Made by a program: the position numbers and the translations under genes. A stretch of DNA of 64,000 bases from a virus, in the IMG/VR virus record IMGVR_UViG_3300004481_000271, positions 44,942 to 108,941 of that record. One strand, 5' to 3'. Of the stretch, positions 3,633 through 41,723 are shown one piece after another. Under the pieces are notes generated by a model that was not told where the DNA came from, did not search any database, and worked only from the letters and a program-made list of their open reading frames with translations. Position 1 is the first letter of the stretch. Every line of letters begins with the position of its first letter.

Positions 3633-3648
3633 CGGCGGCCCCCTTCCC

Positions 3649-4227: not shown

Positions 4228-4228
4228 G

Positions 4229-5683: not shown

Positions 5684-6027
5684 CCCGAGACCCTCCTCTC
5701 CTCCGAGAAGATCTTCTCCTCGACCGTCCGGAGGGAGGGGATCACGACGATCGAGCCAACCGGGAGCTCGACGGTCGGGTCATGGATCGGCTGGGGTTGG
5801 AAGTCGGCGATGACCCACCATAGCCCGGACGGCCTCGGGAGCCCGCGGAAGTAGCGCCCGGCAAGGCTCCACAGGGTATCCCCGGCCCGGATGACGTGGG
5901 CCCGGTTGTCGGAGAGCTGGGCGAAGGGAAAGGGTTCTCGCTCGACGAGGAAGAGCTCCTTCTCGCCGAGGTCGTCGAAGCGGACGCCGGTCGTGTAGAT
6001 GTACCGCGATCGGGCTCGAGGCGGCAT
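5680..6027 (-). CDS. LysM-domain tail protein
   Basis: HVIRAGDTLWSLAGRYF...LWWVIADF...GSIVVIP. Confidence 0.88.
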   Translation of the reverse strand: MPPRARSRYIYTTGVRFDDLGEKELFLVEREPFPFAQLSDNRAHVIRAGDTLWSLAGRYFRGLPRPSGLWWVIADFQPQPIHDPTVELPVGSIVVIPSLRTVEEKIFSEERRVSG

Positions 6028-19495: not shown

Positions 19496-19533
19496 CGGTT
19501 TCCTCACTTCCCTTTCCCTTCCCCTTCCCCGTT

Positions 19534-20976
19534 CTACTGCCCGGGTTGTCCGGCCAGCTTCCTTCCGGTGTAGCGGAGCTCTGCAAGGTGAACGTGGACA
19601 ACGAGCGTGCAAGTGTCGCCCGCGTGATCCCCGTCCCGGCGAAGCCAGAGCGCCATGAAGTCCTTCGTCGCGTCGAAGTCGCCAGCCGGGATCGCGAAGT
19701 CGACGGCGAAGAGGACGTCGTTCGACCTGGCGGACTCGTCTTCCGTGAATGCGACGCTGTGCTGGTAGCTCGCCGGGAGTGCGTCTCCGGCCGATAGAAG
19801 GCTCCAGTCGAGTTGCCAGCGGACCCCGGTGTTGCCCGGAGTCCCGGCAAATGAGCAGACCGCGCGAAGCGTGAGATCCCCGCCCGTCCGGTTCTGCGGC
19901 GGTCGACAGGTCCAACGAAGGCGACTTTCCCCGGCGGCGGCGAACGTGACGCTCGGGACGTCGTTGTTCGACGACGCGGCGGCGCCTCCTCCTCGGATGC
20001 CCGTGTCGACCGGGAATCCGACGCGGCACGTCCCGACAGAGACGACGTCCGCGCCGGCGAGCTCCAGATCCCCGCGGTGCGTGACGCGAAGTCGCTCGAC
20101 CGTCGATGTCCCGCCGTCCCGGAGCAGAACTCGGAAGTCGGCCTCCGGAGCGGCGGTCGCGGGGTCGGACCATACGAAGTGACACGATCCGACGTCGCGG
20201 AGGACGTCGTCGTCGTCGTTCAGCCGGACGAAGACCCCGGTCCCGAACCCCGCTAGGACTGGCTCACTTGACCTTCGGGTGATCCCGATCAGCGACGTCG
20301 CGGAGGAGTCGTCCGTCGTGAGCTCCCGGACGTCGAGCTTCCGCGCCGGCAAGCCCCCGACGTCGACATCTCCGCCGACGATGACCGCCCCCGAACGGTC
20401 CTCCGACGGGAGTCCGCCGGACGCGGACAAGCCGACGTCGTCGACGTGGAGTCCCGTCGTGCGGGCGATCCTCCCGACGTAGCTCGGAGACCCGCCGGCC
20501 GTCGTCCGGAAGACCGCATAGGACACGGCTCCGGGAAGCGCACCCCATGAAACCCGGTTGAAGTCGACTTCCCCGAGCGTCGCGGCCCCGGTCGAGATCA
20601 ACGTCTCCTCGGACGCGACCGTCTCCCCAGTCGGGGAAAACGCCGTCACGCAGTAGCCCCAGGACGTCGAGCCGGGGGTCCCCTGCGGTGCGACGGTCGG
20701 CGCGGCGGGAGACCCAAGCGGGTTGACGATCATCCCGGCTTCGACCGGGTCGAGCGGGATTCCGTCGTGGGCGGCGACGACTCCGTCGAGGAGCGTTTCG
20801 TCGCCGGCGTCGAGGGGCCCGTCGAACCAGACCCCGACGTTGTCTCCGGCGACGTTCGTGTGGAGGTAGCCCGCGGAGTCGATCCCGGAGCTCGCGACCT
20901 CCTCCTCGAAGGCGTCTGCGGCGAGTCCGTTCGGGAAGTCGCCGGCGAGACTGTAGCTGTACTCGGTCGCGGCCAT
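19534..20976 (-). CDS. Putative virion fibre/decoration protein
   Basis: 480 aa beta-rich; YCVTA..GET...YAVFRT Fn3-like part and ERLRVTHRG fibre-like motif. Confidence 0.55.
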   Translation of the reverse strand: MAATEYSYSLAGDFPNGLAADAFEEEVASSGIDSAGYLHTNVAGDNVGVWFDGPLDAGDETLLDGVVAAHDGIPLDPVEAGMIVNPLGSPAAPTVAPQGTPGSTSWGYCVTAFSPTGETVASEETLISTGAATLGEVDFNRVSWGALPGAVSYAVFRTTAGGSPSYVGRIARTTGLHVDDVGLSASGGLPSEDRSGAVIVGGDVDVGGLPARKLDVRELTTDDSSATSLIGITRRSSEPVLAGFGTGVFVRLNDDDDVLRDVGSCHFVWSDPATAAPEADFRVLLRDGGTSTVERLRVTHRGDLELAGADVVSVGTCRVGFPVDTGIRGGGAAASSNNDVPSVTFAAAGESRLRWTCRPPQNRTGGDLTLRAVCSFAGTPGNTGVRWQLDWSLLSAGDALPASYQHSVAFTEDESARSNDVLFAVDFAIPAGDFDATKDFMALWLRRDGDHAGDTCTLVVHVHLAELRYTGRKLAGQPGQ

Positions 20977-25716: not shown

Positions 25717-26649
25717 TCAGACCGCGCGGACCCCCGTCGCCTTCACGACCGCCGGCTCATGCGCCCACTTGAAGTCGACGCGAGCGGTCACGACGATCAT
25801 GTAGACGCCGGCCGAAATGTCGCGGTCGGTGTCGATCCGGATGTTCCGCCAGATCCCGAAGAGCATGTTCCCCGGGTCCGCCGCGAGGACGACCGTCTCG
25901 TTCGCGCCGACTCCGAGGTCGGTCGGGAAGACGGGAACGCCCATCACGGGGATCCCCTGGAACGGCCGGCTCTCGAGGGCCTGGACCTGCTCGTCGCCGA
26001 GCGGGGTCGCGCGGTCGCCGAGGCTCTCCTGATAGTCGATGTTCGCCTCGTCCGCGGAGAGGAAGCGGAGGCTTCGCTTGTCGCGGCGGAACTCAGAGGG
26101 CATCGTCTTCAGGATGTCCTTCAGGACGCTCCTCTGGAGGGTCGCCCCGCCCCCGAGGACGACGTTCGTCGTCGCCTGGACGATGAAGCCGTTCAGGGTC
26201 TTCAGGAGGTCGTCCGTCGAGGTCGTGTCGCCGTTGAAGGCGAGGTCCTCGAGGTCGAGAGCGATCCGGTCCGCGAGGGTCTGGCGGATCGTCTGCTCGA
26301 AGTTGCCCCGCTCGATCGAGTCCTCGAGGGCCTCGAAGGAGACGTGGGTCTCCGCCTTCACGAGCTGGGCGTCGAGCTCGATCTTCGAGGTGTCCGGCGC
26401 CGACCGCATGGCGAGCGGAAGCGCGGCGGCCTCCGTCCCCTTCCGGAGCGCGCGGGACCCATATCGGATCTTTTCCCGGAGCTCCTTCGGGCTGTTCATG
26501 TCGACCCTCGTCATCATGGGCATGACGACGGACTGGTCGATCGCGAGCTGGATGAACCGGTCGGCCTGTGCGGGCTCGAGGAGACCGCCAGGCGCCAGGT
26601 TCGCCAGCAAGAAGTCCGCCTTCCGAATGACGTCGCGGTTGTCCTGCAT
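25717..26649 (-). CDS. Major capsid protein (HK97 fold, XkdG-like)
   Basis: GGLLEPAQADRFI, LEDSIE, DLEDLAFNGDT, NMLFGIWRNI, TARVDF motifs. Confidence 0.92.
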   Translation of the reverse strand: MQDNRDVIRKADFLLANLAPGGLLEPAQADRFIQLAIDQSVVMPMMTRVDMNSPKELREKIRYGSRALRKGTEAAALPLAMRSAPDTSKIELDAQLVKAETHVSFEALEDSIERGNFEQTIRQTLADRIALDLEDLAFNGDTTSTDDLLKTLNGFIVQATTNVVLGGGATLQRSVLKDILKTMPSEFRRDKRSLRFLSADEANIDYQESLGDRATPLGDEQVQALESRPFQGIPVMGVPVFPTDLGVGANETVVLAADPGNMLFGIWRNIRIDTDRDISAGVYMIVVTARVDFKWAHEPAVVKATGVRAV

Positions 26650-26676: not shown

Positions 26677-28062
26677 TCAGAGGACCCAAGGCCCGCCGCG
26701 ATGCGTGCGGTCGGCCCGCGTTCCGTTGCTTCTTCCGGTCGACTCGGTCCGACTCGCGGGAACTTGGGGCGTTCCCGCGATCTCCTCGACCTTCGAGGTG
26801 ACCGCGTCGAGCTTCTTCATGATCCCGGCGAGGAGGTCGTCTCCCTCGCGGACGGGCTTGTCGTCGGGGCCGGAGCCGACGCTTCCCGGACCGCCGTCGG
26901 CGTTCGCCGGCGGGAGCGGTTCGGTCGCGGCGGCCCGCTTCTGGGCGTCCTCGGTCGAAGCGGCCGGAGCCTCCGCCTCTTCGATGATCGAGATCGCCCG
27001 ACGGACGGCGTCGAGGACACGGGCGAGCTTGTCGGCTCCGCCCTTCTCGACGGTCGACTCGAGGGACTTCGAGAGCCCGACGATCTCGTCGCGGATTCGG
27101 ACGAGCTCGGCGGGGTCGGGAGCGTTCGCGATCCGGGTCATCGCCTCGGCGAGGACCTTCAGCTTGTCGCTGGTCTCGGATCCGACCGCGGAGAGCTTCT
27201 CGTCCATCTCCTCGGCAGTGACCTCGACCGCCTCGCCCTCGGCCTTCTCCTCGACGGTCGGCTCCGCGGCCGGCGGGTCGGAGGCGGGAGCCTCGACGGT
27301 GGGAGCGGGAGCGGGGGTCTCGCCTCCGGCCGGAGCTCCGCCCTCGGCCTCCGGCTCCTCGGGGACGTCCGCCTTCGTCTCGGCGGTGGCCTCGAGGGCG
27401 GACGGCGCCGCTCCGGCGGTCGGCTGGGGATACTTCTCGGCGAGGGCGTTCAGCTTGGCGGCGAGCGCCCGGACTTGCGACAACGTCGCGGCGTCGAGCT
27501 CGTCGGACTCGGCGGCGGAGGCGGCGAGGGACATCGCGGTCTCGCCGACCTCCATCAAGCCCTGCGAGACCGGGCCGTCGGCCTTGTCGACCTTCTCGGC
27601 GGTCTTGCTCATGGGCGAAGGATACCGCGAAAGAGCTCCGCGCAACAGATCCGAGATCGCGGTGATCTCCTCCGCGAGCTCGACGGGGACCGGCTCGGCC
27701 GACGACTCGGACGTCTCGCCGGCTTCCTTCACCATGTTGGAGACGGAGACGAGCCGCTCGAGAGCCTCGGTCACGATCCGGAGGAGTCCCTCCTTCACCG
27801 GACCGGGGAGGTCGACCTTCACCACGGCGGAGACGTCCGCCGCGAGGGTTGTCTCGGCGACATCGTTCGTCGCCGTCCTGGTCGGGTCCATGTTCCCTCC
27901 GCGTTGCTTGACGATGAGAAAGCGCCGACGGTTCGCGGCGCGGTCGACGAAGGAGACCTCCTCGACGAGGATGTCCCGAAGCCGAAACTTCGCTTCGTCG
28001 GGAGCTCGCCCCAGGAAGACGAGAGCGGCCTCGAGAGCTCGGTTGAACTTCGCGACGTCCAC
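26677..28062 (-). CDS. Scaffold protein with N-terminal protease-strand motif; likely second internal start at 27891
   Basis: EEVSFVDRAAN motif then acidic A/E/P-rich coiled coil; GGAGGGAAC-ATG at 27891. Confidence 0.75.
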   Translation of the reverse strand: MDVAKFNRALEAALVFLGRAPDEAKFRLRDILVEEVSFVDRAANRRRFLIVKQRGGNMDPTRTATNDVAETTLAADVSAVVKVDLPGPVKEGLLRIVTEALERLVSVSNMVKEAGETSESSAEPVPVELAEEITAISDLLRGALSRYPSPMSKTAEKVDKADGPVSQGLMEVGETAMSLAASAAESDELDAATLSQVRALAAKLNALAEKYPQPTAGAAPSALEATAETKADVPEEPEAEGGAPAGGETPAPAPTVEAPASDPPAAEPTVEEKAEGEAVEVTAEEMDEKLSAVGSETSDKLKVLAEAMTRIANAPDPAELVRIRDEIVGLSKSLESTVEKGGADKLARVLDAVRRAISIIEEAEAPAASTEDAQKRAAATEPLPPANADGGPGSVGSGPDDKPVREGDDLLAGIMKKLDAVTSKVEEIAGTPQVPASRTESTGRSNGTRADRTHRGGPWVL

Positions 28063-28088: not shown

Positions 28089-31000
28089 TCAGGACGCCAG
28101 CGATTCCCGAAGGGCGGTCCCGCCCATGGAGTAGCCGGTGAAGGCGCCTCGCTTGATCGCCTCCCAAACGTCATCGTTCAGGACGCGGGTCCCGAGAAAC
28201 CACGTCCCGACCGGAAAGGTCTCCTCGCCGTGGGTCTCGCGCACCTTCGCGAGGTAGGTCTCGAGCACGACAACACCATCGACCGCAGCCCCGTTGTGCA
28301 TGACCTTGAAGGTGTCACCCCCGAAGTGTTCCATGTAGCTATGAGCCGCCTTCCGAACCTCGTCGGCGGAGTAGATGTCGCCCTGGGCGTCCGGTTCGTT
28401 GGGGACGAGGACGACGCCGAAGACGTAACGCTCCTCGGGCTCGGAGCCGTCCCGCTTCAAGAGGCGGACCGGCCGCTCCGCTCGGACGATCCGCTTCGAC
28501 GTCTCGGTCCGCTCCTCGAGCTCGCCTGGCCGAAGAAGGAGACGGACGTCCTCCGGCTTCATCGGCGCCCCCTCGAGGAGGTCGATCGCCTGGGCGGGAC
28601 CGAACCATCGAATCCGCTTCGGCGGCCCCTCCTCCCAGAGGAGCTCGAAGGTATGCACGAGGATCGTGTCCCCGACATCGGCGTCGAGCTTGCGGTTCCC
28701 GGTCCGACCGACGAGGACGTAGGGTCTTCCCTCGACCTCGACGACCTCCTTCCACTCCTCGATCTCGGAGCTCGAGATCGGCCCGACGGCACCGACGAAG
28801 TTGTAGACCTCCGGTGATCCCTCGACGGCGTTCCGCTCGGCGACGATCGCTCGGACTTCGCGGACGGCCTTGACCTTCGCCCAGAGGTCTTGCTCGCCCC
28901 CGAGGGAGTAGGTCGAAGCGAGTTGCTTCATCATCGCGCCCTCGGAGCCCGGCTCCTTCGTTGCCCAGGCGATCGCCCGGCGAAGCGCCGACCTCGTCTG
29001 CGCGATCCTCCTCGGGGCGAGGATGACTCGCGTCGCCCTCGAGATCTCCGAGTCGCGGAAGAACCGCTCGAGGGCCCGACGGCGTTCGCCCTGGGGCCGA
29101 CCGGCGAGGGAGTCCCCGCCCGAGTAGAGGAGATCGAAGACGACGAAGCGGAGGTCCTCGTCGTCGACGGGCTTGTCGACGCGGAAGCGGGAGAGCTCGC
29201 GGCGCGGAAGGAAGGAACCCTCCTCGTCGACGGCCATGATCTCGCCGTCGAGGATGAAGCTCCCCCCGACCGCCTCGAGCTCGCCGGCGAGCCCGCGGAG
29301 GTTCGGCGCGATGTCCCGCTGGGTGTCTTCGGTGTAGACGAGGACCCCGCCCTCGCGGACGTCCTCGTCGACGTTCGCTTCCCACTTCTCCGCGATCGCG
29401 CGGAAGCCGTTCAGCTTGGGCTCGACCTGGACGCCGGCCCGGACGAGTTGGTCAGTGAAGACCTGGCGAGCCGCTTCGTCCGGGTCGGTGAACTCGTTCG
29501 TCGCCCTGGGCGCCGGCTTCATCGGTTGGAAGAGCGCCGGCGGCCGAAGCTCGAGCCGCTCGCCCCCCTTGTCGTCTCCGTCCTCGACCTCCTTCGGATT
29601 CCAGACCTGGGTCCCGTCCTCCCGGACGCGGTGTCGCTTCGCGATCCCAGCCTCGGAGAGGGACCGCTCCGTCCCGGTCGGGAGCTCCTCGCCCTCGAGC
29701 TCGATCGTGTGCCAGTGGCGAACGTCCCGCCCGGGGACGGTCTGGACCGGGAGGCTCGTCTCGAGCTCGTCCCGGACGCGGTGTCGATGATCCCGACCGG
29801 CGGCCGGTTCGGTGAAGCCCTCGCCGAGGGTCTCGGGGAGGGCGTGGACGTGGCCGTCGCCTCGAGCCTTCTCCTCGGGAACCGCCCTTGCCGGCGTCCC
29901 GCCCGGCGAGAATTGCCAGAGGTCCGAGCCGGCTTCCTCGGCGACGAGGGAGAAGAGCCCCCGGAGCTTCTCGCCCCGGAAGCGGACCCGCTTGAACGTC
30001 CGACCGTCCTCGAGGAGCTCGGCCCGACCGCGGTCGACGAGCTCGACCGCCGAGGCGGTCGCCTTCGTCTCGTTCATCGGGACCCCGCCGACCTTCGCCC
30101 CAGGCGGGACGTCGCCCTCGAAGCCGAGGAGCTCCTTCCCGGCGTCGAGGAGGACGGCGCCGATGACCTCCTCGCCGGAGAGCGGGTCCTTCTGGAGCTG
30201 GAAGTCGTAGACCCCGCCCCCTGGCTTCTCGATCGCGAGGTGCCAGATCTGCCGGCTCGGCGCGGCCCGGATGACGGTCTGGCCCTTCCACCATTGCCAG
30301 GCGAGGGAGAAGTCGACGCGGGCGGCCTGTTTCTCGAGCTCGCCGAGCTCGCCCTCCTCCGGGTCGTAGGCTTCGACGAGGACCTTCCGCTCGACCCGTC
30401 GGAACTCGTTATTTTCGACGACGACGTTCTCCGAGGTGAAGATCCGCTCGGCGACGAGGGCGTCGCGGACCTCCCGGGCCTCCCGCTCGGAGTCGGCCTC
30501 CCAGAAGCGAAACTCCCGCGGCGTGGCTTCCATGAGAGACCGCGGCATCCCGGATTGACCGAGCGGAGGCATGGACCGCGTTCGGACGGACCGGCGGTCG
30601 AGGACGGACGGGAGGACGTCCTTCGCGAAGCCGGTCGTCCAGAAGGTCTCGCTCGGCCCGTGGCCGGCGTCGTCGGGAGCGGGCGCGTCCCCTCCCTGGA
30701 GAAGCCGGAAGGTGAGCCGGCCGGCGAAGTCGGAGCCGGTGAGAAAGTATTCATGGGCGGCCGGCTTCTGAAGCCCCCATTCGACCTTCGGCCTTGCGAC
30801 CTCGACGTAGACCCCCGGCTCGTTCCGCGTCGCCCCGACGTCCCCCGGCTCGACGACGGCGTCGCCGAGCTCGAGCCACTCGATCGGCTGCCTCGACTTC
30901 GGAGTCGCGAAGAGCCTCGCGGGAAGGATCATCGGCTTTGTGTAGCGGGAGCCTTCGACGTTGAAGGCGGCGGCGATCTTCCGCCCATCGGCGACGGTCG

Positions 31001-33143
31001 AGACCTCGGGGACGGCGCCGGCCTTCTGAAGAGCGATCGTCCAGCCGACGAGGTAGTCCGGATCGACCTTCATCCGGAGGTCGGCGTGAAGCGTCCGGCC
31101 GCGGAAGTGAAACTGGAGAACAGCAAGGACCGGCCCCGGCTTCGCCGGCCAGTCGAGCATCGGGTCGTCTTGCTTCGCGACGTCCGCCATCTCCTTCAAG
31201 GCGCGGTCCTCGTGGGGGACGAGAACGAGATCGTAGAGGGCGACGTGGTTCGTATAGGGCCCGCCGGCCGGTTCGTGGAGGAACTGGACCCGCCTCGAGA
31301 GCCGAGGCTCGAGGGCCCGCCCCAGGCGAAACTTGATCGCGTGAAGGGTCTCCTCGTCGAAGGGACCGCGGATCAGGATGTCGATGTCGTTCTCGCTCCG
31401 GCCAGCGGCGCAGATCGAGCCGACGAGGTAGACCGCCGGCATCCGGATCGACATCGGCTTCGAGAGCTGGGCGAGGACCTCCTCGAGCGCGGCGGGGTCG
31501 TCGGCGTTCGCGCGTTCCCCGCTCGGGTGAATCGGCGCCGTCTTCCCCTCCCCGTCGGGGAGGGCCTTCCCAAGGGCGGCGAGCTCGGACTCGGTGATCG
31601 GACGGCCCGGCCCCTCGAGCTCCTCGGTTCCGAATGTCTCGCCGGAAAGGAAGCGGACCGTCTCCTCGGCGAGAGCGTCGACCTCGACGGTCTGGACGCC
31701 TCGACGGCCGAGCTCGGCGAGGAGGAAGGCATGGGCGTTGATGACGTCCTCCCGCGTGACCCCCTCGGCGCGGGTCACGTCGGACTCGGCGAAGGACCGC
31801 TCGAAGATCCGATGAAGTTGACGATCGAGCTCGACGAGCTCGGCCGGTGTCGCCCGCCGGAGCTCGTTCGGAGACGGGTCGGCGATGAAACCGTGAGCCC
31901 CCCGGCGGGCGGCCTGGCGGAGGACCTCGTCGATCGACATCTGTCGGGACTTCACGACGTCCCGGTCGAAGTCGACCGAACTCCCGAAGCGGCGCCCCAG
32001 CGGCGGGCGGCGGAGCTCGAGCGGCGGGTCGAAGATCACGACGACCTCGAGGGGGAGATACCAGAGCCCCGACTCGGTCGAGAACTCCCGGGCGGTGAAG
32101 TCGTCGAGGGACTCCTTCTGCTCGTCGGAGAGATCCGCCATGGTCTCGACCGCGACCGGATCGGCCTGGGCGACGACCGCCCAGACGAGGGACTTCCCGA
32201 CCCCCTGGGGGGCGACCTCGTTCACGAGGGCCTGGGGCTTGCCGATCCGCCCGACCCGGCGACGCCTCGAGAGGAGAGCGGCCGGCTTCCCATCGCGGAG
32301 CCGCTCGACGATGAACCCCGGATCGGGGACTTTCAAGGCGGGGAGAACCCCCTTCGGGGGCTCGGCTTGCCAGACGACGGCGGGAACGGCCCCGGAGAGC
32401 CGGCCGGCGAGAACGGCGACGGCGAGCTCCTCGACAGGTCCGCACTGGGCGATCGACGCGAGGGCGGGGTCGAGGTCGGCGAGCTTCGCGACGTCCTCGG
32501 CCCCGTCGAGGACGTAGGTCACGCGGGCGGCGACCGACCCCAGGGGAGGGCGAGCCGGCGGCGGAGCATTCGTCGCGAGCTCGGAAGCGGGCGGCGCCGG
32601 CGGGGTCTCCCGGAGGTCCGGCGACCCCATGGCTTCCCAGAGCTCCGCCCCGTCGAGGGAGCGGAGGACGAGCTCCCCGAGGGCGAGCTTGTGACCGTGG
32701 GCCCCGTCGAAGGCGGTCGACGTCGCGAGGAGCTCGTGAAGGTGATCGCCCCCCTCGTCGGTGATGAGCTCGACCCCCTCGCCGAGGACGAGGACGTGAC
32801 GATGAACCGACCCGTCCCCGACGGCGACGTCGGCCCCGTTGCTCGTCTCGAGCCCGTGAGCGTGCGGCCCGTCCTCGGAGGTTGCCAGGACGGCGCCGGC
32901 CTCGAGGTGGACCTCGCCCCCTCCGTCTGGGTCGAAGATCGAGATCGGCGCGGGGAGGCGGAAGAGGTGCCGATGAAGCCCGTCGAGCTTCGTCGTCCCG
33001 GTCTCCCGCTCGAGGTTGTGAACGTGAACCCCGGCCTCGGCCGAGCCGGCGGGGAGCCCCTTCGCGAGCTCGGCGCGATTCCCCTCGAGGGTGTCGGCGG
33101 CCTTCGCCAGGGCGGCCTCGAGGCGGTCTTCGATCGTCATCAT
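28089..33143 (-). CDS. Multidomain polyprotein: HxH modules, nucleotidyltransferase, two LigD phosphoesterase-like domains, ATP-dependent DNA ligase, XkdF-like prohead protease
   Basis: YLVGS-x9-DID; QFH-x6-HADLR; EPKLNGFR, LDGEI, FVVFDLL, EGAMMK, WAKVK; C-terminal VFGVVLVP..PDAQGD...VMH...GTW...GAFTGYSMGG; ATG 33143 after GGAGG. Confidence 0.88.
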   Translation of the reverse strand: MMTIEDRLEAALAKAADTLEGNRAELAKGLPAGSAEAGVHVHNLERETGTTKLDGLHRHLFRLPAPISIFDPDGGGEVHLEAGAVLATSEDGPHAHGLETSNGADVAVGDGSVHRHVLVLGEGVELITDEGGDHLHELLATSTAFDGAHGHKLALGELVLRSLDGAELWEAMGSPDLRETPPAPPASELATNAPPPARPPLGSVAARVTYVLDGAEDVAKLADLDPALASIAQCGPVEELAVAVLAGRLSGAVPAVVWQAEPPKGVLPALKVPDPGFIVERLRDGKPAALLSRRRRVGRIGKPQALVNEVAPQGVGKSLVWAVVAQADPVAVETMADLSDEQKESLDDFTAREFSTESGLWYLPLEVVVIFDPPLELRRPPLGRRFGSSVDFDRDVVKSRQMSIDEVLRQAARRGAHGFIADPSPNELRRATPAELVELDRQLHRIFERSFAESDVTRAEGVTREDVINAHAFLLAELGRRGVQTVEVDALAEETVRFLSGETFGTEELEGPGRPITESELAALGKALPDGEGKTAPIHPSGERANADDPAALEEVLAQLSKPMSIRMPAVYLVGSICAAGRSENDIDILIRGPFDEETLHAIKFRLGRALEPRLSRRVQFLHEPAGGPYTNHVALYDLVLVPHEDRALKEMADVAKQDDPMLDWPAKPGPVLAVLQFHFRGRTLHADLRMKVDPDYLVGWTIALQKAGAVPEVSTVADGRKIAAAFNVEGSRYTKPMILPARLFATPKSRQPIEWLELGDAVVEPGDVGATRNEPGVYVEVARPKVEWGLQKPAAHEYFLTGSDFAGRLTFRLLQGGDAPAPDDAGHGPSETFWTTGFAKDVLPSVLDRRSVRTRSMPPLGQSGMPRSLMEATPREFRFWEADSEREAREVRDALVAERIFTSENVVVENNEFRRVERKVLVEAYDPEEGELGELEKQAARVDFSLAWQWWKGQTVIRAAPSRQIWHLAIEKPGGGVYDFQLQKDPLSGEEVIGAVLLDAGKELLGFEGDVPPGAKVGGVPMNETKATASAVELVDRGRAELLEDGRTFKRVRFRGEKLRGLFSLVAEEAGSDLWQFSPGGTPARAVPEEKARGDGHVHALPETLGEGFTEPAAGRDHRHRVRDELETSLPVQTVPGRDVRHWHTIELEGEELPTGTERSLSEAGIAKRHRVREDGTQVWNPKEVEDGDDKGGERLELRPPALFQPMKPAPRATNEFTDPDEAARQVFTDQLVRAGVQVEPKLNGFRAIAEKWEANVDEDVREGGVLVYTEDTQRDIAPNLRGLAGELEAVGGSFILDGEIMAVDEEGSFLPRRELSRFRVDKPVDDEDLRFVVFDLLYSGGDSLAGRPQGERRRALERFFRDSEISRATRVILAPRRIAQTRSALRRAIAWATKEPGSEGAMMKQLASTYSLGGEQDLWAKVKAVREVRAIVAERNAVEGSPEVYNFVGAVGPISSSEIEEWKEVVEVEGRPYVLVGRTGNRKLDADVGDTILVHTFELLWEEGPPKRIRWFGPAQAIDLLEGAPMKPEDVRLLLRPGELEERTETSKRIVRAERPVRLLKRDGSEPEERYVFGVVLVPNEPDAQGDIYSADEVRKAAHSYMEHFGGDTFKVMHNGAAVDGVVVLETYLAKVRETHGEETFPVGTWFLGTRVLNDDVWEAIKRGAFTGYSMGGTALRESLAS

Positions 33144-33492: not shown

Positions 33493-34782
33493 TCAGACCG
33501 GGATCGTCGTGCATCGGCAAAGCCCGTGAGCGGGCGGGACCATGGTTCCGCCGGCCTCGCGAACGGACGTCAGCTCCCGGAAGGTGCCCCTCTCGTCGTT
33601 TCGTCCGGCGGCAGATTCGCGCACGACAGCGACCGGAGTCGTCGGCCCCTCTCCTCGAGGCGAGACGTAGATCGTCCCGCCGACCCGAAGACCCTCGGGC
33701 GACGTCGTCCCGCCGACGACCCGATACCACGGGAACTCGTTCACCCCGGCCTCTGGGTCCGGGTTCGCGGACGCTCGAGCGTAGCGGGCGAGCTGGGGCT
33801 CGACGGCGAAGACCTGGCCATGAAGGAACTGGCAGATCTGGCAAGTCCGGCCGTCGAGGAACGCCTCCCATTGGTAGTATTGGAAGCCCGCCTCGCGGTA
33901 GCCGGAGAGGGAGCCGAAGCTCCTCGACCGGGAGGTCGTCGCGGAGGCGACGACCCGGTAATACCACTCGGAGCGGCCGGAGACTCGGTCGCGGAGGGCG
34001 GCGGTCAAGTCGCGTCCGATGTCGACCCGCCCGAGCCCCTCGCGAACCCCGCTCGAAATGATCGCCCGAGCGTCGCGGGACCACATGGCGCCCCGGTGTC
34101 GATATTCGTTCGTGACGAACGTCAGTCCGTCCCGACCGATCCGGCGGGCGATCGCCTCGGCGCCGGCGGAGAGGGTCCGCGAGACCCCTGGACCGCCGGC
34201 AACGAGGGAGGCGGCGCCGGTCGCCATGGCGGCGGCCTCGAGGGTTGCAGTCGCCTCGGCGACGTAGGCTGCATCGGACGGGATCTCGGCGACAAGCTCG
34301 GCGACCCCGTCGATCGCTTCGTTGAGCTCGGCGGCCGACATCGCCGGCCAAGGGCGCCGGCCGAGGGTTGCGAGAGCTTGTCGGACCGCCTCCCGCTCCG
34401 CCGGCGTCGCGACGGAAACAAGCCCTTGTTGGAGCTGCTCGACGGCAACGGCGAACCCCGTCCGCGTGAGAGGGTTCGGCGGCGCCTTCGCGACGGCGAT
34501 CCGGTCGACGGCGATCGGCCAGAGCCAGGCGCCCGAGCGGGTCTGGATCACGCCTTGGAGGACGAAGGCGACCCCATCGCCGGCCTTGGCGAGCTCGCGA
34601 GCTCGCTTCTCGACCGCCTCGGCGGAGAGCTCGCGGACGAGCTCGCCCAGGTAGGGCGAGAAGGCGGCAAGGGCGAGGTGAGACGCGCACCCCAGGGGAC
34701 CGGGAGGGTCGGCGAAGAGGACGTCCCTCGAGCTCGCCACCGTCCGCCACGGCGGACCGTAGACGGCGAGCTCCTCGGTCAC
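33493..34782 (-). CDS. Head morphogenesis protein (MuF / SPP1 gp7-like)
   Basis: QWEAFLDGRTCQICQFLHG and PPAHGLCRCT motifs; GTG 34782 overlaps upstream stop. Confidence 0.9.
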   Translation of the reverse strand: MTEELAVYGPPWRTVASSRDVLFADPPGPLGCASHLALAAFSPYLGELVRELSAEAVEKRARELAKAGDGVAFVLQGVIQTRSGAWLWPIAVDRIAVAKAPPNPLTRTGFAVAVEQLQQGLVSVATPAEREAVRQALATLGRRPWPAMSAAELNEAIDGVAELVAEIPSDAAYVAEATATLEAAAMATGAASLVAGGPGVSRTLSAGAEAIARRIGRDGLTFVTNEYRHRGAMWSRDARAIISSGVREGLGRVDIGRDLTAALRDRVSGRSEWYYRVVASATTSRSRSFGSLSGYREAGFQYYQWEAFLDGRTCQICQFLHGQVFAVEPQLARYARASANPDPEAGVNEFPWYRVVGGTTSPEGLRVGGTIYVSPRGEGPTTPVAVVRESAAGRNDERGTFRELTSVREAGGTMVPPAHGLCRCTTIPV

Positions 34783-35234
34783 CGTGCCCGCTCCCCGGCC
34801 CACTTCCCGCCGGTCGTCCGGACGATCGCAACGTCCGCGCCGGCAAGGGCGAGGGCGGTCACGCGAAAGGCGACGTCGTGTCCCTCGGTCGCGACCTCGT
34901 AGATCGCCCCGGAGCCGAGAGCCCCTGTCGAGGCGAGCTCCCGCCACTTCCGGCCCCCGGCGTTGTTCGGATAGGGCGTCGCGACGAGCGGGGTGATCGT
35001 GACCGTCCCGCCAGCGTGCGGCGCCCCCGCCGTCGTCTCGAAGTCGACGACGAGCCGAACCGTGTCCCATTCCCTCGCGTCGAGCGTGACGTCGTCGGCG
35101 ACGACCCCGGCGGTGATCTCGCCGGCGGAGAGGTTGTCCGGTGTCCAGGCGGCGGCGTCTTGGATTCCGAGATCATCGCGGACGACGACCGTCGCGTCCT
35201 GGGAGTAGAGCCTTCGCTTCGTCGGGCCTGTCAT
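34779..35234 (-). CDS. Hypothetical beta-rich protein
   Basis: Abuts portal stop and overlaps MuF start. Confidence 0.7.
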   Translation of the reverse strand: MTGPTKRRLYSQDATVVVRDDLGIQDAAAWTPDNLSAGEITAGVVADDVTLDAREWDTVRLVVDFETTAGAPHAGGTVTITPLVATPYPNNAGGRKWRELASTGALGSGAIYEVATEGHDVAFRVTALALAGADVAIVRTTGGKWAGERAR

Positions 35235-37136
35235 CTATTCCTCCTCGAGGAGGTCCGCCCCGTGAAGCCCCGCCGCTTCGTCGAGGGCGGCCCGTGCCGC
35301 TCGAGCGGCGGCGTCGGGGACCTCTCCCGCGGCCTCCTCGAGGGCGTTGTTACGGGCGGCCTGGGCGGCGCCAGCGGCGGAGAGGGAGCGGAGCTCTTCC
35401 TCGACCCCTGGACGCCAGTCGGTCCCCTTGTCGGAGCTCGAGCTCGCCCCCTTCGTCTCGTCCTCCGGAGGGCGGAAGCCGGCGAGCGTGAGCTGGATCG
35501 GTTGCTTCGCCCAGGGGACGTCGAGGGAGTCGAGGTCCATCCCGATCACGTCGGAGGAGAGCTCTCTCGCTTCGTTCGGGGTCACGACCCCGACCTTTGC
35601 CAGGTCGACGATGATCGCGGCGACCTTCTCCGGGTCCCTCGTCGAGGGCCCAAGGCTCCGGTAGGTCCAGAGGGTGATCCCGAGAGCGGGGAGGATCGTC
35701 CGGTTGAACCAAGCATCGAACTCCCGCCGCTCCGGCTCGAAGATCTGCTCGTCGGCGAAGCGAAGGGAAGCGTCGGCAGTCGCCCGGTTGAAGTCGCGGA
35801 CGTCCCCGCGAAGAAGTCGCGGCAGGCGAAAGGAGCTCCCGATCTTGTCGATGTTCCGCTCGTCGTAGGCTTGGAAGAGGGCGTCCCCTTGCTGGACGTC
35901 GACGAGCTTCTCGAACTTGAGAGTCGGAATCTCCCTCGGTGACAGCGGGTCAGCGTCCGCGTCGTCGGCCTCGATCACGAGGATCGAATGGAAGTTGCCG
36001 CGCCCCTTGATGTTGTCGCGGAGGTAGGTCTGGATCTGGTCGACCGAATCGGAGGAGAGCCTCCCGCCGGAGACGAGAAGGGCGAGCGGAGGAACCGCCT
36101 TGTTGTCGAAGTAGGTGTAATTGACCTCGTCGGCAGCCCTCGAGCCGAGGACGGAGAGGAGATTCCCGATCCATCGCGGGACCCCGTAAGCCTCCCCCGT
36201 CCGATGGATCCGAAAGTGAACGAGCTCCGTCGCCGGAGCTTCATCGTTCCGGCCAAGGGTTGCAGCCTTGAAGGCGGCGAGGGTCGGATAGACCTCTCCG
36301 GTCTTCTGGGAAACGACTCTGGGGTCGCCGAACTCCTTGAACCAAACGAGCTTCCGCCCGACGGCCTGGACGTAGCGGCGGAAGAAGCGAGGTTGACGAA
36401 CGACCTCGAAGCCGAGCCCGACCTGGACCTTCTCCTCGACGAGGACCGGCTCCTCGTCGATCGGTGTGCAACGGACGTGCGTCGGTGGAACGACAACGAA
36501 GCGGGCGAGCCGGCCGGCCCGATCGCGAAGGACCTCCCAGTAGGCGTTGCCGCAGATCTCCCGGTCCTGGCGGGTCTGTCGCTTCAAGGTGTCGAAGGAC
36601 CCCGTCGGGGAGACCGCGTCGAGGAAGGCAGAGAGCTTCGCCTTCTCGATCCGTTGGAGGCTCTTCAGTTGCTCGAGCTTCTTCTCGACCTCCTCGTCCG
36701 ACGGCATGAGGGCGAGTGGGTCGAGGGCGAGCTCGCCCTCCGCCGGCGGAGCCCCCTCTTCCCCAAGACGGGAAGTCGCGTCGGCGAGCCTCGCCTCGGC
36801 GCGACGGAACCGCTCGACCCAGATCGCATCGCGGACCTTCTCGAAGGAGTCGTCGGCGTTCAGGTCGATTCGGGGAGCGAACCGGTAGCCGAGCCCGTCG
36901 ATGTTCGTAACGTAGGCGGCGACGTTCTGGTTTAGAGCGGAGCTGTTCTCCCAGAGTCGGAAGAGCGTCCCGGGGTCGTAGCTCGGCTCGACGACCCCGG
37001 AGCCGCTGAAGAGCGCCCCGAGTTGCTCGTCCTCGGTGCCCTGGATCGATCGCGGGATGACGAGGTCGGAACCGAGGACCTCGGCTTTCAACGTGCGCCG
37101 GCGTCCGCTCCTCTTCGTCTCGCGATCGTCCGCCAT
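35235..37136 (-). CDS. Portal protein, PBSX family
   Basis: GNAYWEVLRD, ELVHF, YGVPRW, YFDNKAVP, FRLP..L.G...FNRATA, TPNEAR. Confidence 0.95.
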   Translation of the reverse strand: MADDRETKRSGRRRTLKAEVLGSDLVIPRSIQGTEDEQLGALFSGSGVVEPSYDPGTLFRLWENSSALNQNVAAYVTNIDGLGYRFAPRIDLNADDSFEKVRDAIWVERFRRAEARLADATSRLGEEGAPPAEGELALDPLALMPSDEEVEKKLEQLKSLQRIEKAKLSAFLDAVSPTGSFDTLKRQTRQDREICGNAYWEVLRDRAGRLARFVVVPPTHVRCTPIDEEPVLVEEKVQVGLGFEVVRQPRFFRRYVQAVGRKLVWFKEFGDPRVVSQKTGEVYPTLAAFKAATLGRNDEAPATELVHFRIHRTGEAYGVPRWIGNLLSVLGSRAADEVNYTYFDNKAVPPLALLVSGGRLSSDSVDQIQTYLRDNIKGRGNFHSILVIEADDADADPLSPREIPTLKFEKLVDVQQGDALFQAYDERNIDKIGSSFRLPRLLRGDVRDFNRATADASLRFADEQIFEPERREFDAWFNRTILPALGITLWTYRSLGPSTRDPEKVAAIIVDLAKVGVVTPNEARELSSDVIGMDLDSLDVPWAKQPIQLTLAGFRPPEDETKGASSSSDKGTDWRPGVEEELRSLSAAGAAQAARNNALEEAAGEVPDAAARAARAALDEAAGLHGADLLEEE

Positions 37137-37175: not shown

Positions 37176-37856
37176 CTACCGCGGGAGATAGAGCTCGCGG
37201 AGCTCGGCCCGGTCCGAGTCGGTGAGGCGGCCGGCGGGGAGCTCGCTCTCCTCGGCAGAGAGCGTCCGCCGGTTCATCAGCGAGCCCGTCCAGTCGTCGT
37301 GGGCAAGCCCGGCGGCGTGACCGAGCTCGTGAAGGAGAACGCGGAAGAGCGTCGCGTCGTCGGGGACGTTCCGGACGACAACCGTCGCGGCAGTCGCCCG
37401 GCCGTCCCCTCGAAGCCGATGTCGGCACTCCCCGGGAGGGTCGCCGAGCTCGGCGGCGGCCCCAAGAACGAGGGAGACGTCGACGACCCCTTCGCGCCCC
37501 CGGTCGAGGGTGAAGAGCTCGAAGCCGACCTGGGAGTTGAAGTCGGCGACGGCGGCCTCGACGACTCGAAGCTCCTCGGCCGGCGGCGTCCCGTTCTCGC
37601 CCTCTCCATGAAAGACCCGGACGGCGAGCGGGACAGCCTCCCGCGGCCAGCGGAGCTCGAGAGCGTCCGCACAAGTCGCCGGCTCCTCGCCCTCGAGGTC
37701 GTCGACGTAGACCGCCCGGTCGCCGATCCGGCAGATCCGCAGGAGCCCCGGCTCGTCGTGCGTCGTGACCCCGTAGACGATGAGAACCGCGGCGGCGACC
37801 CCGATCGTCAGGAAGACGACAACCCCGACGACCCATCCGACCCAGCGGCGTTGCAT
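37176..37856 (-). CDS. Membrane-anchored matrixin-like zinc metallopeptidase (metzincin)
   Basis: N-terminal TM; HELGHAAGLAH plus SLM Met-turn; ATG 37856 after GGAGG. Confidence 0.85.
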   Translation of the reverse strand: MQRRWVGWVVGVVVFLTIGVAAAVLIVYGVTTHDEPGLLRICRIGDRAVYVDDLEGEEPATCADALELRWPREAVPLAVRVFHGEGENGTPPAEELRVVEAAVADFNSQVGFELFTLDRGREGVVDVSLVLGAAAELGDPPGECRHRLRGDGRATAATVVVRNVPDDATLFRVLLHELGHAAGLAHDDWTGSLMNRRTLSAEESELPAGRLTDSDRAELRELYLPR

Positions 37857-38194
37857 GATTCGCCCTCCTCCTCCTCGCAAGACTGCCCAGCGAGAGCGGC
37901 AGCCCTCGCCTTCGCGGCGATCTTCGCGAGCTCCTCGGGACCCCCGACCGCGTCGGCGAGCTTCGCGAGCTTCGCTTGAAGCTCGGCGTTCGCCTTCTCG
38001 GCGGCGTCGGCGAGCCCCTGGGCAAAGCGGATCGCCTGGGCGGGGTTCAAGACAACGTGGTCGAGCATCCGTCCGAAGCGGACGGCGACTTGACCCGGAG
38101 CGGTCCCGATGTTGATGTCGATCGACCGCGACGGCGCCGACGGCGCAGCCTTCCCGTTCCGCGGCCGCTTCCCTGGCTTCCTTGGCTTCTTCAC
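37808..38194 (-). CDS. Hypothetical protein
   Basis: GTG overlapping upstream stop; coding-like codons. Confidence 0.6.
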   Translation of the reverse strand: MKKPRKPGKRPRNGKAAPSAPSRSIDINIGTAPGQVAVRFGRMLDHVVLNPAQAIRFAQGLADAAEKANAELQAKLAKLADAVGGPEELAKIAAKARAAALAGQSCEEEEGESCNAAGSDGSSGLSSS

Positions 38195-38472
38195 CCCGAG
38201 CTCCTTCCCCTTGGAACCTCTTCGAGCGTCGGCTCGTCGCCTCGACCGGCGGTCTCTTCCTCCTCCTCGACGACGACCTCCGGCTCCGGCCGGACGTAGC
38301 GGGCTCGGACGGCGGCCTCGCACCGGTCGGAGCACGCATCGAACCGCCCCCAGCCGAGAACCTCGACGAACCGCCAGGGCGGCGGAAGGACGACGACCCT
38401 CTCCGGACGATCGACCGGGATCGCCCTGGGGCAGGCGTCGCAAACGATCCGAGATTCCGTCCGGTCGACCAT
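38191..38472 (-). CDS. Small putative zinc-finger protein
   Basis: CDAC...CSDRC. Confidence 0.6.
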   Translation of the reverse strand: MVDRTESRIVCDACPRAIPVDRPERVVVLPPPWRFVEVLGWGRFDACSDRCEAAVRARYVRPEPEVVVEEEEETAGRGDEPTLEEVPRGRSSG

Positions 38473-38506
38473 GGCGCCTCGAGTCTACTCTCCGACCGCG
38501 GTCGAT

Positions 38507-40108
38507 CTAAACCCCGATGATCTTCGCGCCCCCTCGCCCCGAGCTCCGACGAGCTCTTCGGTCTCGACGGGCGGAGTAGAGGCGGGCGGCCTCCCGGGCG
38601 ATCCACGACGCCATGAGGCGGTCGCCCGTATGTGTCCCGGGGTCGTAGGACACCATCTCAGCGATCCATTCCCCGACCTGGGAACCGACGGCGCGAGTCC
38701 CCGCCTCGCACGGGATCGCCCACTTCCCGACGGCGAGCTCGGCGGCGAGAGACTCGACCCCATACTCGGCAGAGAGCTTGTTTCGTCCGGTCGTGAAGGA
38801 ACGGACGCGGAGACCCGGAGCCCGTTCCCGGACCCACTGAAGGAGGAAGTCCTGGGCGGCGTTGTTCTCGACGATGACGATCGATCGGAACCGCTCGTGA
38901 ACGGAGACGACCCGGTCGATGATCTCGGGCCCGGCCCATCGGCCGGCCTGGACCTCGAGGACCTGGCGAACCTCGTCCGGCCGGACGAGGATCGTGAAGA
39001 GGGCGGTCAGGTCGGCCGACTCCTTCCTCGAGACGGCGAGGTCGACTCCGGTCACAACGAGAACCCCCTCGGGGAGCCCGCCGAGGCGGGCGACGGCGTC
39101 GGTGAAGTTGAGCTCCTCGGCGAGCTCGGGGAGCTTCTCGGGGATCTCCTCGAGGCTCCGGATCGTCGGGAGCCCCTCACCGTTCGCGAGGCACGTCTCG
39201 ATCCACTCCCGCTTGAACCGTGCGGACTCCTCGTCGCGGGGTTGGCATAGCATCTGGCGAGCGAACTCGATCGGTCCGAGGATCTCGTTCCGCGTTCGCT
39301 CGATCCGCTCGAGGTTCCATCGCTCCGGCCAGAGCGGGACACCGTCGGCGTTGACGACGGGATACCGCTTCGCCCACCACCCCGACCGCTCGAGAGAATG
39401 CGCCATGTCGTCCGGGTGCCAGGCGTTCGATAGGAAGACGACCCAAGCGCCCTCGGCGAGCCGCGGGAAGGCGGAGGCGCGGATCCATTCCTCCGTCTTC
39501 TCCCGCTGGTACTTCGTCCGGGTGTTGATCTCCGTCAAGACGTCGTCGATCACGAGCCCGTCAAGGCGGGCGCCTTGGATCGTTCCGCCCTCCGGAGAGT
39601 AGGCTTGAACCGACGGGTCCTTGATTCCGTGCGGCCGCTCGATCTCGATCGCGTTGTCCGTCCAGAGGGTCCCCTTCCTGAGTCCGGGGAAGACGTCTCG
39701 GACGACCCGGTTCTCGATGATGTGCCCCTGGATCGCTCGGATGATCTTCTTCGCCTGCCCCTGAGTCGCGGAAAGGATCGCGTATCGACGCCGGACGTCC
39801 TGGCCAAGAAGCCAGAGGATGCGGACGATCGCGAGCTGTTGGGTCTTCCCCGACTCCGGGAACGTCCAGATCACCGCGAGGAGGTTCTCCTCGATCGTGT
39901 CGTGCCATTCGACTTGGAAATCTTGAACCTCGATCGGGTGTCCGGTCTCCTCTTCGCGAAGGACGAGCTCGCAGAACGTCGGGCAGTCGTGACGCGCGAG
40001 CTCGACGAGGGACGCATAGGCGAGCCTCGCGGTGTCAACGAGCGGACTCGCCTCGACCCGCCGATGGAGGAACCGAAGATCCGCCGTCTTATCTCCGGAG
40101 AAGGTCAT
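38507..40108 (-). CDS. terL: Terminase large subunit
   Basis: Q motif, Walker A PESGKT, Walker B LVIDD, nuclease TGVDLA...D, ENNAAQ, HTGDRLMA. Confidence 0.95.
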   Translation of the reverse strand: MTFSGDKTADLRFLHRRVEASPLVDTARLAYASLVELARHDCPTFCELVLREEETGHPIEVQDFQVEWHDTIEENLLAVIWTFPESGKTQQLAIVRILWLLGQDVRRRYAILSATQGQAKKIIRAIQGHIIENRVVRDVFPGLRKGTLWTDNAIEIERPHGIKDPSVQAYSPEGGTIQGARLDGLVIDDVLTEINTRTKYQREKTEEWIRASAFPRLAEGAWVVFLSNAWHPDDMAHSLERSGWWAKRYPVVNADGVPLWPERWNLERIERTRNEILGPIEFARQMLCQPRDEESARFKREWIETCLANGEGLPTIRSLEEIPEKLPELAEELNFTDAVARLGGLPEGVLVVTGVDLAVSRKESADLTALFTILVRPDEVRQVLEVQAGRWAGPEIIDRVVSVHERFRSIVIVENNAAQDFLLQWVRERAPGLRVRSFTTGRNKLSAEYGVESLAAELAVGKWAIPCEAGTRAVGSQVGEWIAEMVSYDPGTHTGDRLMASWIAREAARLYSARRDRRARRSSGRGGAKIIGV

Positions 40109-40948: not shown

Positions 40949-41220
40949 CGGTCGCCCTCCTCGAGGACCTCGGCAACGAGGACCTCGCGGTCGACCCGGA
41001 AGGTCCTCGAGACCCCGACGACCTGGGAACCCCCGGCCGGCGGCCGGTCGCCCTCGGAGGCGAGGACGACCCGGACGACCCCGCCTCCCCGACCTCCGAC
41101 CTCGCGGACGAGGACCTCGAGCTCGACGCCTCCGACGAGGAGGACCTCGAGGAGCCCCTTCACGGCAGCCCTGGGGGTCTCCGCCTCGAGGAGGTAGGTC
41201 GCCTCGACCTGGGTCTTCAT
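40945..41220 (-). CDS. Hypothetical protein
   Basis: Coupled to both neighbours. Confidence 0.6.
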   Translation of the reverse strand: MKTQVEATYLLEAETPRAAVKGLLEVLLVGGVELEVLVREVGGRGGGVVRVVLASEGDRPPAGGSQVVGVSRTFRVDREVLVAEVLEEGDR

Positions 41221-41612
41221 CGACCGCCCCCAAGTCGCCAGGCGGCCTCGAGGGCGTCGCCCTCGGGGCCCGGCGGGCGGACGAGAACCTCGAGGGCGAT
41301 CCCGACGGAGAGGAGCCCTCCGAGGGAGCGGCGGACGGTCTCCTCGACGGCGACGCGGAGCTCGTCCGACGGCGAAGCGGCCTCGACGAGGACCGCGATG
41401 GTCCCGCCTCCCCGAACGGCGCCGGTCACGCGGTAGACCCCGGGGACGGCCCGAGCTCGAGCCTCGAGGTCCTCGAGGGTCGGCGACCGGAGGTCCTCGC
41501 GGAGGACGCGGGCGACGCGGGCGGCGAGGAAGTCCGCCGGCTCCCCCGGCCCGGGGACGAGCCCGACGAGGGCGGCGGAGCGGCGGAGGGACGCGAGGGC
41601 CTTCGGCTTCAT
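41217..41612 (-). CDS. Hypothetical protein with C-terminal WRLGG motif
   Basis: EVLVRPPGPEGDALEAAWRLGG. Confidence 0.65.
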   Translation of the reverse strand: MKPKALASLRRSAALVGLVPGPGEPADFLAARVARVLREDLRSPTLEDLEARARAVPGVYRVTGAVRGGGTIAVLVEAASPSDELRVAVEETVRRSLGGLLSVGIALEVLVRPPGPEGDALEAAWRLGGGR

Positions 41613-41723
41613 CGCCTTCGTTACTACTCGATCGCGATGGAGGCGGCCAGAAGCCCCCAGGACGCCCCGGAGGGCGGGGGGCTCGGAGGTAGGGGAGAAG
41701 CCGGGGCGGACGTCCTGGGCGGA

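Follow-up and report, generated by a model that had tools for sequence, protein, structure and literature searches.

Polyvalent proteins, as described by Iyer, Burroughs, Anand, de Souza and Aravind in 2017, are long multi-enzyme proteins that are encoded in phage head modules and conjugative elements and for which packaging and injection have been predicted; the assemblin-like peptidase in them, thought to process the protein, invariably stands at the C-terminus (PMC5512222). Head-carried enzymes that act before phage gene expression include P1 DarB, T4 Alt and internal proteins, and the N4 virion RNA polymerase (PMC5512222). Here, we analyse a polyprotein of 1684 amino acids (aa) that ends in a prohead protease domain of another type, XkdF, which the same group holds to be unrelated to the assemblin/SH superfamily (PMC7824862). 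It is encoded on the minus strand of a window of 64,000 nucleotides, bases 44942–108941 of the 108,941-bp IMG/VR virus record IMGVR_UViG_3300004481_000271, which is rated complete by CheckV. The genome is of the myovirus type, with genes for a tail sheath, a tape measure protein and a baseplate hub, and has a G+C content of about 69 %.

As in the published polyvalent proteins, several disparate enzyme domains are found in one very long chain, the gene lies amid portal, terminase and head genes, Pol-beta nucleotidyltransferases (NTases) and DNA methylases occur among the domains, and a processing peptidase stands at the C-terminus, though XkdF belongs to a different peptidase family from the one in that account. 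XkdF, LigD, ASCH and DNA ligase cargo are all absent from the published account (PMC5512222), and a further difference is that the peptidase here is the phage's own and sole head protease, with a predicted docking partner. P1 DarB, the T4 proteins and the N4 polymerase follow the same logic as that proposed here but use other targeting signals. We therefore regard the polyprotein as a polyvalent protein with a new cargo and a new anchor, the general concept being already published (PMC5512222). In the reading that we prefer, to which we give slightly better than an even chance, it is a polyvalent head protein in which nucleic-acid enzymes fused to XkdF enter the capsid during assembly and travel with the DNA to the next host, where they would repair the incoming genome. 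The fusion to the protease most likely serves the loading of the enzymes into the capsid.

A sequence-only reading of this DNA had called an XkdF-like protease at the C-terminus, and the call holds, with a Pfam match to PF14550 over aa 1617–1727 (5e-27, 94.8 bits against a cut-off of 24); residue numbers throughout are those of the 1733-aa P0001 translation, which counts from the opening of the frame at 33290. In a scan of the genome XkdF was found as a single copy (100.7 bits), and no member of the S78, ClpP or S77 prohead protease families was found in the 108.9 kb. Hence, the polyprotein holds the only recognisable head protease of the genome. H1665 is kept in 52 of 52 relatives and S1721 in 51 of 52, and the domain is predicted to be a protease that cuts the scaffold or capsid proteins. 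No solved XkdF structure surfaced in sequence searches. The gene had also been placed in the protease slot of the head operon, and it does indeed sit between the MuF gene and those for a scaffold-like protein and the major capsid protein. Read along the minus strand, the genes encode the terminase large subunit, the portal, an open reading frame (ORF) of 151 aa, MuF, the polyprotein, the 461-aa scaffold-like protein and the major capsid protein, and the part of this order that runs from the portal through MuF, polyprotein and scaffold-like ORF to the major capsid protein is found again in more than 30 related loci.

The scaffold-like protein opens with a motif that can be written RL-D-I-L-VEEVS-x-VDRAAN-RRFL-VK. 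In the form VSxVDxAAN..FLxxK it directly follows XkdF in nearly all related loci, including 73 of 80 genome loci, and it opens the next protein in myxobacterial, Pseudomonas and the present phages. In the XkdF proteins of Firmicute phages the motif is found in cis, N-terminal to the protease domain and followed by a coiled-coil scaffold. When the complex of XkdF aa 1596–1733 with scaffold residues 1–70 was predicted, the interface score ipSAE was 0.80 and the best of three controls reached 0.00. The runs gave 0.80, 0.82 and 0.74, with at least 92 % of the contacts in common and a partner pLDDT of at least 60. Of 80 solved complexes, 58 reach the ipSAE mark applied to docking, as do 2 of 110 mismatched pairs, a calibration that is approximate here since our own alignments were used. 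In the predicted interface, scaffold residues 22–54 face XkdF 1716–1732, pair with the last XkdF strand and contact S1721. The models thus suggest that the XkdF domain docks on the N-terminal motif of the scaffold-like protein, and what is predicted as docking may be the complementation of a split fold, because motif and XkdF form one chain in the canonical proteins. Such docking would offer a concrete, testable route for capsid loading.

Conserved hydrophobic-x-Lys sites are found at several domain borders (K706, K890, K1218, K1258 and K1612, together with scaffold K52) and are candidate cleavage sites, which we put forward as a lead only. A programmed -1 frameshift between polyprotein and scaffold was considered and rejected; the 2-mod-3 offset of the motif ORF in 81 of 97 loci is explained by an ATGA overlap behind GGAGG, and in the present phage family the frames vary and the start codons are separate. 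Such an ATGA overlap, preceded by GGAGG, joins the XkdF and motif genes of myxobacterial prophages. A TTG start for the scaffold-like protein at 28167, which would create a 79-nt overlap, was also set aside, the GTG at 28062, past the polyprotein stop, being likelier.

Canonical XkdF proteins (Bacillus PBP180 ORF10 and Lactococcus phage 28201 gp33; PF14550) share with the polyprotein the protease domain with its conserved His and Ser, the slot between the portal (or MuF) and capsid genes, and the VSxVDxAAN..FLxxK motif. However, in these proteins motif, protease and coiled-coil scaffold make up one chain of approximately 350 aa, whereas here the protease is the last domain of a 1684-aa enzyme array, with motif and scaffold encoded downstream as a protein of their own. 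The split form without cargo is seen in Pseudomonas phage PAK_P5, gp003 being a bare XkdF of 138 aa and gp004 the motif-plus-scaffold protein. The bare XkdF of PAK_P5 (NC_022966, 2919–3335) bears the annotation 'DNA methyltransferase', a label common to many records of Pseudomonas phages that probably spread from methylase-XkdF fusions sharing phrog_1530. Smaller enzyme-XkdF fusions are Arthrobacter phage Laroye gp18, a 2H phosphoesterase joined to XkdF that is annotated 'RNA ligase', and the Dam-methylase-XkdF proteins of Myxococcus, Corallococcus and Archangium prophages. Both have a nucleic-acid enzyme N-terminal to XkdF and lie in the head module, but they carry a single cargo domain and neither a ligase nor a LigD-type phosphoesterase (PE). 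No description of these smaller enzyme-XkdF fusions was found in a literature search.

The cargo includes an ATP-dependent DNA ligase, as had been read from its motifs I, III, IIIa, IV and V. The adenylation domain matches PF01068 over aa 1285–1474 (5e-20), and a profile of the region finds 3gde in the PDB at 2e-25 with the five motifs aligned to those of archaeal DNA ligases. They are K1292-L-N-G (I), E1350 (III), F1385-D1386 (IIIa), E1450-G..K1455 (IV) and K1472-x-K1474 (V). K1292 is kept in 46, E1350 in 48 and K1455 in 48 of 52 relatives, and E1450, K1472 and K1474 are present in nearly all of the members that have the domain. The genome holds a single copy of the ligase. The OB-like tail proposed to follow it stands as a conserved region of 118 aa, in which RWFGP falls in register with ligase motif VI (LRFPR), but its alignment to a ligase OB domain (3rr5, 513–565) is not significant.

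Two further domains have the fold of the LigD 3'-phosphoesterase, and for both the sequence-only reading, which had taken the one to be LigD PE-like with the signature QxH-x6-HxDxR and the other to be a degenerate copy, was upheld by fold comparison. Two AlphaFold models spanning aa 60–1150 were built from an alignment of 21 sequences. In these, PE1 (aa 720–891) superposes on 3p4h with Z 13.0 (root-mean-square deviation (rmsd) 1.9, 113 residues aligned) and PE2 (aa 991–1132) on 3p43 with Z 15.2 (rmsd 2.3, 120 aligned). PE2, like PE1, matches LigD phosphoesterases from archaea and Pseudomonas in structure, and the top seven Foldseek matches of PE2 are all LigD PE domains. The metal site is retained in PE1, with H728, H735 and D737 kept in 53 of 54 relatives and Q726 and R739 in 52 of 54. 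Reportedly, work on LigD PE by the Shuman laboratory defined an essential set of His42, His48, Asp50, Arg52, His84 and Tyr88 (P. aeruginosa numbering). PE1 keeps the first four of these and has Q801 and W805 in place of the last two, an assignment that is based on motif register and fold superposition and not on a residue-level structural alignment. The full set is thus present in neither domain (four of six in PE1, most missing in PE2). PE1 is an active-looking LigD-type 3'-phosphoesterase, judging by its residues. In PE2 the metal and phosphate site is degenerate, with VYDFQ in the place of LigD HYDFR in a phmmer alignment, and most catalytic positions are missing. Since it has nonetheless kept invariant residues of its own (Q999, R1008, N1073, T1078 and S1080), binding seems likelier than catalysis. 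A duplication giving rise to PE1 and PE2 was not recognisable by sequence (hhalign probability 0.25), and the two are linked by fold only. PE1 alone, searched against the PDB with phmmer, gave chance matches only, to aIF1A.

Bacterial LigD is an enzyme of non-homologous end joining that combines polymerase, phosphoesterase and ligase domains and has Ku as its partner. The polyprotein resembles it in having a PE fold and an ATP-dependent ligase in one chain, in the Mn-site Gln, His, His, Asp and Arg kept in PE1, and in the variable order of the domains among relatives. It differs in having an MNT-type NTase of approximately 100 aa in place of the AEP primase-polymerase, for which no Pfam match was found anywhere in the polyprotein at E<=1. 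In addition, the PE is duplicated with one copy degenerate, the PE1 counterparts of His84 and Tyr88 are replaced, and the ligase is nearer to the archaeal and eukaryotic Lig1 type (2e-25) than to the ligase domain of M. tuberculosis LigD (1vs0, 1.6e-11). No Ku (PF02735) was found in the 108.9-kb phage genome, though the host may have one. Hence, the earlier description as a 'LigD-like kit' holds only in part; the PE and the ligase are present, but there is neither an AEP polymerase nor a Ku, and the NTase is of another type.

The NTase carries the Pol-beta-like signature that had been noted, GS-x9-DID at aa 624–637; of the 56 relatives compared, all have D635 and D637, and 52 have the third carboxylate, D687. 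It appears to be a minimal MNT-type domain and not a polymerase; over aa 614–689 the fold resembles that of the MNT antitoxin 8xeo with Z 5.8 (rmsd 3.2, 72 aligned), a middling value. Further towards the N-terminus, aa 311–447, listed as unknown in the sequence-only reading, is in the models an ASCH/PUA-like fold. The best matches are ZmASCH and EOLA1 (Z 9.5 to 6kir, rmsd 3.2, 112 aligned; Z 9.3 to 5guq, rmsd 3.3, 120 aligned), with PUA-like matches to YqfB, EVE and YTH ranked lower, and the model suggests a nucleic-acid-binding domain. For this domain no match was found at the sequence level with Pfam or PHROGs on single segments, and the same searches found nothing for the N-terminal region, the NTase, PE1 or PE2. 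A search of BFVD, a library of viral folds, was uninformative, with a single unnamed match. Two HxH modules were located where they had been placed before, with six motifs at aa 89–200 and three at aa 1147–1194. The N-terminal one has a low to moderate model pLDDT and is found in some relatives only, and the second is present in eight of 21 close relatives. These modules are built from units of three G-x-H-x-H-x-L motifs that are gained or absent blockwise among relatives, and they may bind metal. In an Atlas look-up they matched YmaF-family clusters at 0.79–0.80, which is under the level reached by shuffled sequences and is a weak lead only.

Table 1. Features of the polyprotein gene and of the surrounding head module (window coordinates; residue numbers follow the 1733-aa translation except for the docking motif)
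Feature	Position	Strand	Residues	Remarks
Terminase large subunit	38507..40108	-		
Portal protein	35235..37136	-		
MuF-domain head protein	33493..35070	-		
Whole polyprotein gene	28089..33143	-		1684 aa from ATG at 33143
N-terminal HxH module	32646..33038	-	85-215	six G-x-H-x-H-x-L motifs
ASCH/PUA-like beta-barrel domain	31950..32360	-	311-447	pLDDT about 90; fold match
Conserved helical domain	31521..31916	-	459-590	fold search gave no assignable fold
Minimal Pol-beta-superfamily NTase	31176..31493	-	600-705	G624-S625-x9-D635-I-D637 and D687
PE1, LigD 3'-phosphoesterase fold	30618..31145	-	716-891	Z 13.0 to 3p4h
Conserved helical linker	30327..30614	-	893-988	MPPLGxSxMP motif
PE2, second LigD-PE fold	29883..30320	-	991-1136	Z 15.2 to 3p43
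Second HxH module	29691..29873	-	1140-1200	three HxH motifs
ATP-dependent DNA ligase nucleotidyltransferase domain with N-terminal lead-in	28845..29615	-	1226-1482	Pfam 5e-20
OB-like region	28491..28844	-	1483-1600	conserved in 52 relatives
XkdF-type prohead serine protease domain	28092..28463	-	1610-1733	Pfam 5e-27; H1665, S1721
Scaffold-like protein	26677..28062	-		461 aa, GTG start; acidic, Ala/Glu-rich, basic C-terminus; position conserved in 30+ loci
Scaffold docking motif	27901..27999	-	22-54 of scaffold-like protein	around RLRDILVEEVSFVDRAANRRRFLIVK
HK97-fold major capsid protein	25717..26649	-		

The frame is open on the minus strand from 33290 to the stop at 28089–28091, but its first 49 codons are Arg/Ser/Pro-rich and non-coding in appearance. 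The gene as called in the database starts at 33143, and its closest homologues begin at the same point. The G+C content at third codon positions is 0.89, matching that of the adjacent genes. Among 1.84 billion representative proteins searched, 575, one per cluster at 50 % identity, were matched at E<=1e-30. The survey of viral databases that the earlier reading had called for found relatives in 37 IMG/VR loci, and more are present in contigs of Myxococcales metagenome-assembled genomes (MAGs) and in one Bathyarchaeia contig. With relatives in 37 viral contigs and a third-position G+C content like that of its neighbours, the ORF is a genuine gene. In standard annotation, members of the family are a 'hypothetical protein', a 'DNA methylase' or a 'nucleotidyltransferase'. 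One Myxococcales MAG contig that was binned as bacterial, JACPVI010000063.1 (105,832 bp), has matches to a full-length relative at both ends and is probably a phage genome of the polyprotein family and not a chromosome. The closest XkdF domains (50–54 % identity) stand at the C-terminal ends of Dam-like methylase fusions from the Myxococcus, Corallococcus and Archangium prophages, and these together with the G+C content of the genome indicate that the host is probably a myxobacterium.

Architectures vary among the relatives, some lacking the ligase adenylation domain or PE2 and a few having an altered domain order. The 25 long relatives that were scanned include 14 with a D12 adenine methylase, three with a C5 methylase, two with a 2H phosphoesterase and a few with inteins (Hint plus LAGLIDADG), and single ones have a Tad3 Thoeris inhibitor, AdoMet decarboxylase, RNA ligase or metallo-beta-lactamase-fold domain. 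The added methylases and Tad3 fit a cargo that acts early against host defence. A set of NTase, ligase, OB and two PE domains without XkdF is found in the archaeal virus ANMV-1 and in other loci (L034, L035 and L037), and the shuffling of this set as a unit argues that the enzymes work together. The ANMV-1 protein (KP703175, ORF 3200–5800, 866 aa) has homologous NTase, ligase, OB, PE1, linker and PE2 regions (32.5 % identity over 452 aa, E 8e-44), but it has no XkdF, has another domain order and is encoded outside the head module. It is annotated solely as a DNA ligase, yet with the NTase and both PE folds it is a free-standing enzyme kit.

In the reading that we prefer, the array of ASCH/PUA-like domain, minimal NTase, PE1, degenerate PE2, ATP-dependent DNA ligase with its OB-like region and, at the end, XkdF would be recruited when the XkdF domain binds the N-terminal motif of the scaffold-like protein, and by this docking the whole 185-kDa polyprotein would be co-assembled into procapsids. 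During maturation the protease would cut both scaffold and polyprotein and free the enzymes, which would stay inside the capsid and reach the next host together with the DNA. In the new cell they would clear 3'-phosphate or 3'-ribonucleotide blocks and seal nicks or breaks before any phage gene is expressed, and the healing of the genome would be part of a first-strike, counter-defence role. A more specific version, in which an ancestral XkdF protease-scaffold chain was split, docking loads the cargo and may also complete or position the active site, and virion ligase and PE repair the injected genome, is more tentative, and we would rate it as possible but short of probable.

The idea of the protease as a carrier is plausible, but a number of points weigh against delivery and repair. 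As a rule, prohead proteases and scaffolds are broken down and leave the capsid ahead of DNA packaging, and the cargo could share that fate. The ligase requires ATP or adenylylation before packaging, and its motif I has Asn in place of the usual Asp (KxNG versus KxDG) in 43 of 52 members. In PE1 the Gln and Trp replace the phosphate-contacting His84 and Tyr88 of LigD PE, and neither PE domain is recognised by Pfam LigD_N (PF13298), which has no match in the genome. The NTase is MNT-like, of a type that modifies proteins in toxin-antitoxin systems, so that a role for it in DNA repair is only putative. Ligase or PE2 has been lost in some relatives, the XkdF-less kits indicate that the capsid is not needed for the function of the enzymes, and no full-length relative was found in cultured phages, the best match being the archaeal virus ANMV-1.

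The array may instead be loaded into the procapsid but never delivered, acting within the head in nick sealing or end trimming or serving only as a bulky internal scaffold that is degraded by the protease and expelled before or during DNA packaging. The position of the gene and the predicted docking are the same for this explanation, the usual departure of prohead proteases and scaffolds from the capsid is in its favour, and the conserved Lys residues at the domain borders would fit extensive cleavage. However, a pure scaffold would not retain the catalytic residues of four enzymes across approximately 50 relatives, a filled capsid offers no supply of ATP, and the methylase and Tad3 domains of relatives make sense in the host cytoplasm only. 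We consider it unlikely, though it is the alternative to be taken most seriously. That the fusion serves expression and not packaging, the protease freeing the enzymes late in the cytoplasm to act on replicating phage DNA, appears improbable. The kit homologues without XkdF in ANMV-1 and the three other loci are as such an explanation would have them, but the extreme C-terminal XkdF and the location in the head module are conserved in dozens of diverged phages and XkdF is predicted to bind the scaffold-like protein. Moreover, as the only candidate head protease the polyprotein must enter procapsids.

The target could also be different, and a cargo that acts on RNA or signalling nucleotides, in the repair of tRNAs cleaved by host anticodon nucleases, in the degradation of cyclic nucleotides or 2',3'-cyclic phosphates, or through AMPylation of host proteins by the NTase, has a marginally smaller chance again. 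The ASCH fold includes members that act on RNA (ZmASCH, YqfB), 2H phosphoesterase or RNA-ligase domains are present in some relatives, and MNT-type NTases modify proteins (PDB titles; PMC5512222). Yet the ligase is closest to replicative DNA ligases (3gde, 2e-25), DNA methylases are the commonest added domain, and classical RNA repair needs a polynucleotide 5'-kinase, a domain that Pfam did not find in the polyprotein. Finally, an assembly chimera, which the earlier reading had named as a possible refutation, or a decaying pseudogene has a negligible probability. No support for it was found, and the one odd feature is that the frame is open for 49 codons ahead of the real start; the chimera is ruled out by the identical architecture seen in the 37 IMG/VR loci and in MAG contigs, and the 575 representative clusters and a codon usage that fits the adjacent genes count against decay as well.

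Three further genes of the window were noted in passing. Between the terminase and portal genes, an unusual location, is a gene for a small, apparently membrane-anchored zinc metalloprotease (37176–38606, minus strand), which carries HELGHAAGLAHD and matches Pfam Peptidase_M10 at 9e-07; its real start is probably near the Met at codon 250. In a serine recombinase (41217–42437, minus strand) the resolvase domain is complete, but the Recombinase domain is cut off after its first half by a stop at 41724–41726. The frame is open for 169 further codons beyond this stop, which are not recombinase-like, and the gene may be a truncated or damaged integrase. In the structural module, the C-terminal part of the product of an ORF at 18605–20185 (minus strand) matches phrog_4175, a poly-gamma-glutamate hydrolase PHROG, at 1.3e-23, and this product may be a virion-associated depolymerase.

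We know of no DNA ligase or 3'-phosphoesterase that has been shown in a phage virion, and literature searches combining XkdF with ligase or LigD with phage virions, or for a packaged ligase, found no prior description. The family is large (575 representatives) yet absent from cultured phage collections. If delivery with the DNA is correct, this phage would be the first with a DNA break-repair system delivered by the virion, and DNA repair would join the known first-strike repertoire, beside the methylases and the Thoeris inhibitor domain of the relatives. The pairing of XkdF with its motif would amount to a simple and transferable rule by which foreign proteins could be brought into HK97-fold capsids. 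Should the enzymes reach the next host, they would provide an answer to nucleases at the level of protein, with no need of gene expression, and a cut genome would be resealed on arrival.

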